Shown here in pieces: positions 54,786 through 55,432 of a stretch of 56,349 nt of DNA (positions are counted from its first letter, which is position 1; the number at the start of each line of letters is the position of its first letter). The stretch lies in the UHGV virus genome UHGV-0011358, one strand, 5' to 3'. Made by a program: the position numbers and the translations under genes. The stretch is from a virus. The notes beneath the pieces are model-generated. The model saw nothing but the letters and a program-made list of their open reading frames with translations. It did not search any database and was not told the DNA's origin.

Positions 54786-55432
54786 TTATGGCAGGTTTAC
54801 GATCTTCGCATCAACCACCACGCCTAAGATTTTTGATTCTGGATTCATAGGGATCGGCGGATACAACGGATTCAGTGAACGCAAAAGTTTTCGGCCTCCA
54901 TCAATAATCAATTGTTTAAACGTCGGTATTTGCCCTTCTTCGAGTTGAGCTATAACCAGTTTACCATCAATAGCTGGCGCGTGCGGGTCAATAAGTATCA
55001 TAGTACCGGCAGGGATGCTTAACCCCTGCGGTGCGTTCATTGATTCACCTTTAGCTACCAGCCAATAACTATCATCCGAACAAATAACGTTAGTAGTAAC
55101 ATGTGGCAATGTTGATCGGCGTATGCCTTCCATATTGTTTGCTACATCCTTCCAGTCAACAACCGGGTAACTGCCTAAATCACGCGGTGGCGCTCCCGGT
55201 AACGTGTTAGAAACAGAATCATCGATAACCATCCCGTCATGTGTGACAGTAAACTGCCGACGCCCAAGCGCCGCATGATCCGCGCAATATCTTCAAGATT
55301 TGGCTCACGGCGACCGTTCAGCCAGTGCGAAAGGCCACCTTTGGTTATCCCCATGAGATCAGCCAATGAATCCTGACTCATGCCCTGCGCCCGCATGAGC
55401 TGCTTTGCTAAGTCATACCATTTTGTTTTCAT
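54786..55432 (-). pseudogene. cI-like repressor (HTH N-terminus plus S24/LexA-like C-terminus) split by a frameshift near 55233
   Basis: HTH ORF 55175-55432 and S24 ORF 54786-55232 overlap in different frames; C-terminal part matches lambda CI cleavage domain by eye. Confidence 0.6.

Follow-up and report, generated by a model that had tools for sequence, protein, structure and literature searches.

The window, by which we mean the whole stretch of 56,349 nucleotides of viral DNA analyzed here, contains two overlapping open reading frames (ORFs) on its minus strand that lie between an intrinsic terminator and a divergent regulatory region. The upstream ORF (55432..55175), taken from the ORF list with its translation, encodes 85 amino acids (aa) and matches the Pfam helix-turn-helix (HTH) families HTH_3 (E=3.4e-13) and HTH_31 (E=5e-10), with the HTH match in this piece covering Pfam positions 2-50 of 55. 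The downstream ORF (55232..54786) encodes 148 aa that comprise a linker and a Peptidase_S24 domain of the dimerization/autocleavage type (Pfam E=4e-18). The two are in different frames and overlap by 58 nt (55175-55232). The start of the 148-aa ORF is a fortuitous ATG, and reading the sequence upstream of it revealed no evident Shine-Dalgarno sequence. A sequence-only reading of this DNA had described an HTH half and an S24 half in different frames, and both ORFs do exist as it described them, with Pfam support for each.

A terminator scan placed an intact intrinsic terminator just after the repressor gene (54763..54780, minus strand), and a terminator is annotated at the matching place in phages mEp010, mEp515, and mEp021. 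On the other side, a divergent regulatory region (55433..55735, unstranded) extends from the repressor to the first rightward gene. It contains a PR-like promoter on the plus strand (TTGACC, a 16-nt spacer, and TAAACT; 55492-55519), and operator-like palindromes such as TTGCAATGATGCAA (55542-55555), which are putative operators. The PR-like promoter is followed by a boxA-like AGCTCTTTAA and by a hairpin. Across the entire divergent region, the window and the temperate phage mEp010 differ at one base only, a T-to-C change at 55681. This position lies in the leader, downstream of both the PR-like promoter and the boxA-like AGCTCTTTAA, and is C in the window and T in all six aligned relatives. 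The first rightward gene, in the position of Cro, is intact (55736..55981, plus strand) and encodes 81 aa; in mEp021 it is annotated as a putative MarR-like HTH protein.

Comparison with the intact repressor of mEp010 identifies the two ORFs as parts of a single gene. When the 215-aa mEp010 cI was used as a tblastn query against the window, residues 1-57 matched at 98% identity in a first frame and residues 55-215 matched at 96% identity in a second, a two-frame match that is far above chance. The mEp010 protein, annotated as a 'cI repressor', carries HTH and S24 domains in one protein according to Pfam. In cI/LexA-type repressors the two domains belong to one polypeptide; this is the case in all intact relatives and is not the case in the window. 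The window gene belongs to the cI/LexA-type (Cro/C1 HTH plus Peptidase S24) family in a mutated form and is effectively a pseudogene. The sequence-only reading had called for a translation with one base corrected to be set against known repressors, and the repaired protein is 96-98% identical to mEp010 cI per segment. It is also 90-97% identical to 44 relatives in IMG/VR.

To the resolution of a single base, the lesion could be located by aligning the gene with its counterparts in mEp010, mEp515, and mEp021 (683 columns, 97% mean column identity). The sole intragenic gap in this alignment is the loss of one G from a GGG run, such that the gene strand reads ATGCGGGCGCTT in the relatives and ATGCGGCGCTT in the window, and the codons ATC ATG CGG GCG CTT become ATC ATG CGG CGC TTG. 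The 1-bp deletion lies at 55271..55272, where the plus strand has CC (GG on the gene strand) as compared to CCC (GGG) in intact relatives, and GGG was present in every intact relative caught by the search pattern. It falls at codons 54-55 and alters the frame from codon 55 onward; a GATC site adjoins it. The resulting 5' repressor fragment (55175..55432, minus strand) consists of 54 native residues, covering HTH helices 1-4, and 31 out-of-frame residues, followed by a premature stop. The sequence-only reading had pointed to a CCC run at about 55233, near which the two halves overlap. The overlap is indeed there, but the lesion is not, its real site being 55271-55272. We rejected the CCC at 55233-55235 as the lesion, as it merely adjoins the downstream ORF's ATG and shows no change in intact relatives.

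Among relatives, the repressor is nearly always a single intact ORF of 215 aa. This was true of all seven phages compared, of all 35 complete Escherichia coli genomes with a match, in which it is annotated as a LexA family protein or regulator, and of 42 of 44 close IMG/VR loci, the two exceptions being one gene cut by a contig end and one with a different frameshift. Of the 20 metagenome loci in which the gene is present over its whole length, 19 likewise had it intact. The exact 81-aa neighboring protein was found in 401 collection blocks, and in 10/10 examined prophage contigs bearing this identical gene the adjacent 215-aa cI was intact. The possibility that the two domains are normally separate genes, which the sequence-only reading had named as the observation that would overturn its account, therefore fails against a near-universal single ORF. 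As no other allele has the two-frame layout, it represents a fresh mutation and not a conserved arrangement, and the ancestral state, judged from the sequences of these relatives, is one gene. In addition, because the operator region is unchanged, the lesion is of the cI-null type and not of the operator (vir) type.

The repaired protein can be aligned to lambda cI (3BDN) over residues 15-208 with low identity (E=3e-18), and the two share a two-domain HTH and S24-like architecture with Ser and Lys motifs in common. Residue 54, the last native residue of the stub, aligns at the end of the equivalent of lambda helix 4, with the helix numbering being that which we take to apply to lambda. GESM (Ser131) and TFKQL (Lys173) align with lambda GNSM and TFKKL, which presumably hold Ser149 and Lys192, and both motifs are conserved in 54/54 intact relatives. 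Repressors of the cI/LexA type typically cleave themselves at an Ala-Gly or Cys-Gly pair ~35 residues ahead of the catalytic Ser. At the site aligned to Ala111-Gly112, which we take to be the self-cleavage site of lambda cI, the window has V-A-N-N (codons 96-99, 55138-55149). A-G is present at this site in only 5/54 intact relatives (L010-L019, L023-L066), and the others have TV, AV, AA, VA, or VV. Cleavage may occur at another site, as far as the aligned sequences go. Most phages of mEp immunity I are not UV-inducible (PMC11893012), and the missing Ala-Gly site may explain this lack of induction. A further contrast with lambda is the non-lambdoid nature of the mEpimmI group (PMC11893012).

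The window is a complete genome of a temperate coliphage of the mEpimmI (mEp021-like) group in its excised form. At the DNA level, the repressor region shares 96.6% identity with mEp010 over 1 kb, and 90-95% with mEp515, mEp044, mEp021, mEp554, mEp013, and MagusPhagus. Over the 25 kb from 31350 to 56349, 75-86% of the sequence is alignable at 87-90% identity to seven sequenced members of the group, and the remainder of the window aligns to these same phages. The mEpimmI group comprises Nus-dependent, non-lambdoid temperate coliphages from human feces, and plasmid-expressed Rep021, the repressor of mEp021, blocks all six sequenced mEpimmI phages (PMC11893012). A highly conserved repressor (~96% identity within the group), a collinear genome, and Nus-dependent antitermination with three nut sites characterize its members. 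The split gene is the same gene at the same locus as mEp010 and mEp515 cI (WWQ70182.1 and WWQ70407.1) and mEp021 Rep021 (gp15), and the locus order of terminator, cI, divergent promoter region, 81-aa gene, and O-like replication gene is common to the window and all three phages. The window differs from the mEp010 group in lacking one G at codons 54-55, and consequently a single 215-aa protein, and in its larger genome of ~56.36 kb, as compared to 53-54.7 kb in the sequenced mEp phages. The early regions are interspersed with several HNH_3 (homing-endonuclease-like) genes, for example at ~2785-3393, with more copies on the contigs of L020-L022, and these genes probably account for part of the larger size. 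Rfam and tRNA scans of the window found nothing.

Several observations define the form of the genome. Both ends of the window (56300-56349 and 1-30) fall inside the O-like replication gene, within direct repeats of the iteron GGTAGTGTCACAGAGTCACTGGG, and, as is seen from identical contigs that read across the junction, the window lacks 14 nt of iteron (CTCTGTGACACTAC, other strand) between 56349 and 1. The O gene looks frameshifted only because of linearization at this junction. A MEGAHIT k141 contig of 56,504 bp gives the same length by a different route, since 56,504 - 141 = 56,363 = 56,349 + 14, and the true circle is ~56,363 bp. The three full-length assemblies have two break points, with the window and scaffold_587 opened in the ori iterons and the MEGAHIT contig opened near 47.9 kb. 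An intact 415-aa integrase ORF (7913..9160, minus strand), whose counterpart on an identical contig (L020) has a Phage_integrase Pfam match, is separated by ~260 nt from a large minus-strand ORF matching side tail fiber genes (9425-12745). The mEp010 record is laid out as a prophage, with the integrase and tail fiber at opposite ends, whereas in the window they are adjacent, and the window is therefore the excised (attP-joined) phage form. No host flanks are present, and the sequence closes on itself in the ori iterons.

Taken with the evidence for recurrence presented below, we consider it probable that the window carries a genuine 1-bp loss-of-function deletion and that the phage is a cI-null, obligately lytic one. 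Translation of the deletion allele would yield the 54-residue HTH stub with a 31-residue nonsense tail, such that the linker and the whole S24 domain would be gone, and the downstream 148-aa ORF would be left without a proper translation start. In lambda cI, the C-terminal domain mediates dimerization and cooperativity, and by analogy the S24 C-terminal domain is expected to provide dimerization and cooperative operator binding here. With no dimeric repressor, the early promoters would not be shut off, and lysogeny would be neither established nor maintained. The phage would then propagate only lytically and would have the classical cI-minus clear-plaque phenotype. Because the operator region is unchanged, it would also stay sensitive to the immunity of resident mEpimmI prophages. 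Both the loss of repressor function and the lytic lifestyle are what we infer from the sequence. Clear plaques are classically produced by frameshift or nonsense mutations that remove the C-terminal domain; the mutation is thus of an ordinary kind, and no new mechanism is needed.

Of the alternatives, the one that survives best, unlikely as we find it, is that the gene is split but still functional, either because the HTH stub gives partial, SOS-insensitive repression, as in a carrier or pseudolysogenic state, or because recoding by -1 ribosomal frameshifting or transcriptional slippage restores some full-length repressor. The stub does keep the HTH through the helix-4 equivalent, N-terminal fragments of lambda cI repress when overproduced, and the stub might retain weak operator binding and some residual repression; it lacks, however, the domain that gives lambda cI its dimerization and cooperativity. 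A -1 shift anywhere within ~55300-55175 would rejoin the two frames, but inspection by eye of this interval, which extends from the final stop codon of the S24 frame to where the 85-aa ORF ends, revealed neither a canonical X XXY YYZ heptamer nor a long A/T run, and the S24 ORF has no evident ribosome-binding site from which it could be translated separately. Programmed frameshifting was rejected on the lack of a slippery site by eye and on an arrangement that is unconserved among relatives, with the two-frame layout being found in no other allele. The occurrence of the clone in several samples with its integrase and operators intact is in keeping with a phage that can still repress, yet its genome assembles as a free circle, unjoined to host DNA.

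The deletion is not confined to the window. The exact 85-aa and 148-aa products are encoded on at least eight contigs (ENA, Logan, and NCBI), and the deletion allele was found in loci L007, L008, L009, and L020-L022. Four contigs were read directly and carry the same deletion: k141_467815 (ERZ27287064; 56,504 bp), k141_157901 (ERZ27287050), scaffold_587 (ERZ28615892; 56,530 bp), and a Logan contig from run ERR7737954. These four match the window without a single mismatch over 17.5, 12, 11, and 1.7 kb and represent four sample or run accessions, with contigs named in the styles of MEGAHIT, SPAdes, and Logan, although the accessions possibly stem from only two or three studies, and the lack of SNPs means that they are one clone and not independent mutations. 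A literature search for the accessions yielded nothing relevant. The only difference among these assemblies is in a T run at 52728-52733 (A6 on the other strand), mostly non-coding and located between the SSB gene and a 92-aa gene, which is T6 in the window and ERZ27287064 and T5 in ERZ27287050 and ERZ28615892. As the assemblies differ at this run, they are separate assemblies and not copies of one file. The exact deletion allele was also sought in IMG/VR, GTDB genomes, and metagenome_contigs and was absent from these.

Such recurrence leaves little room for an artefact in which the phage truly has GGG and an intact repressor and the base was lost in consensus calling, an explanation we hold to be very unlikely. 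Its appeal is that the lesion alters the length of a 3-base homopolymer, a place where errors occur, next to a GATC site; that the exact repaired protein (P0017) is present in ENA, on short contigs; and that a related low-coverage contig (L070, k-mer coverage 0.27) has an AAA-to-AA change in cI that is possibly an error. Yet the identical deletion is shared by at least eight contigs, four accessions, and three assembler naming styles, and these names suggest short-read assemblies, which rarely miscall a 3-base run in a well-covered full-length contig. Much longer runs, such as the G9 at 5684-5692, occur in the window without gene damage. Furthermore, nonsense-like truncations and one non-homopolymer deletion in the cI genes of relatives, described below, are not explicable by homopolymer error. 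Since the deletion recurs on at least eight contigs and no other gene is frameshifted in 56 kb, sequencing error is unlikely, and of the two explanations that the sequence-only reading had left side by side, an inactivating mutation giving a clear-plaque phage is strongly favored over a homopolymer error.

The statement that no other gene is frameshifted comes from an ORF-level tblastn of every ORF of 70 aa or more in mEp010 and mEp554 against the circularized window, in which cI was the only real gene split between frames. A genome-wide blastn list of indels relative to mEp010 and mEp554 was set aside as too noisy at ~88% identity, being filled with intergenic and compensated indels. Among the other two-frame matches, that in the O gene was an artefact of the window junction, that at 21767-22085 was a non-coding indel in a G-rich ribosome-binding site before a small gene, and three more, going by which strand the annotated genes occupy, were judged to be antisense ORFs. 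The G-rich runs at 21917-21922 and 5684-5692 are both just upstream of small-gene starts, are Shine-Dalgarno-like, and vary in length among relatives; the former is G6 in the window and G5 in mEp010 and mEp554, which mimics a frameshift, and the latter is G9 in the window and much shorter in mEp010.

We regard it as highly improbable that the window is a decaying defective prophage with cI as one of several pseudogenes, since, common as broken regulatory genes are in cryptic prophages, there are no host flanks, the sequence closes in the ori iterons with the integrase adjoining the tail fiber gene, all other ORFs in common with mEp010 and mEp554 are intact, and a prophage without its repressor would be induced and not retained, with 0/49 chromosomal or >100-kb copies of cI being disrupted. 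The defective prophage was rejected on this basis, and the 'defective' phage that the sequence-only reading had entertained is a poor fit to a genome that is complete, circularly assembled, and excised.

Lesions in cI are not unique to this clone. With that of the window included, at least five independent lesions in different alleles were verified at the DNA level, or six if the low-coverage L070 is counted. Those in relatives are AAAA to AAA at codon ~2-4 (L035 = L084; 50,460 bp contig, coverage 9), GGG to GGGG at codon ~79 (L071 and L072; 15.5 and 2.4 kb, Logan runs SRR28426461 and SRR30166386), CCC to CCCC at codon ~91 (L073; 1.2 kb), a 1-base deletion outside any homopolymer at codon ~138 (L094; 47.6-kb circular contig), and the AAA to AA of L070 at codon ~128 (0.9 kb, coverage 0.27). 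At the protein level, truncated forms (P0052-P0063 and P0003-P0015) end at the W124 (three alleles), E130, and Q163 of relatives, and others have further frameshifted tails; judged from sequence, the W124, E130, and Q163 truncations are consistent with nonsense or frameshift mutations. A separate observation concerns L094/L095 (SKER01000456.1; 47,598 bp, circular), in which the assembly break lies inside cI and the ends overlap by ~127 nt, which may point to a mixture of cI alleles in the sample.

The broken and intact alleles are found on DNA of different sizes. For lesions with a known contig size, no contig exceeds a phage genome in length, and of the 28 truncated sequences in two cI-fragment clusters (the 148-aa piece of the window excluded), none is on a contig >56 kb and 11 are on contigs of 50-56 kb, while intact forms are present on chromosomes of up to 5.4 Mb. 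Disrupted cI was found in 2/10 phage-sized metagenome_contigs as compared to 0/49 chromosomal or >100-kb copies (Fisher p ~0.03, in a small sample from a non-systematic survey). This pattern fits purifying selection on the repressor in lysogens with occasional cI-null escape. We suggest only tentatively that cI knockout is a recurrent, positively selected route to obligate lysis for mEpimmI phages in the human gut, and the window clone may instead persist through a repressor-independent carrier state.

Lambda in the mouse gut and the Roseburia intestinalis phage Shimadzu have reportedly given rise to virulent derivatives in situ. The window resembles such derivatives of temperate gut phages in that lysogeny control has likewise been lost by mutation in a phage replicating freely in gut samples, but those cases were followed experimentally, whereas the lifestyle of the window phage is read from its sequence and assembly topology. 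In practical terms, the 85-aa and 148-aa ORFs should be annotated as a single repressor gene that has been disrupted, instead of as a pair of regulators, and the phage should carry a note that it is probably an obligately lytic offshoot of a temperate group. The case is of modest interest in that a complete phage genome present in several public datasets has the mutant form as its consensus, and it offers a small, concrete example of a temperate gut coliphage found in the wild after losing its lysogeny switch. It bears on the scoring of prophage-derived phages as 'temperate' in virome studies and on the choice of phages for therapy. Together with the window allele, the other broken alleles in public assemblies hint that escapes from lysogeny are not rare in the mEpimmI group.
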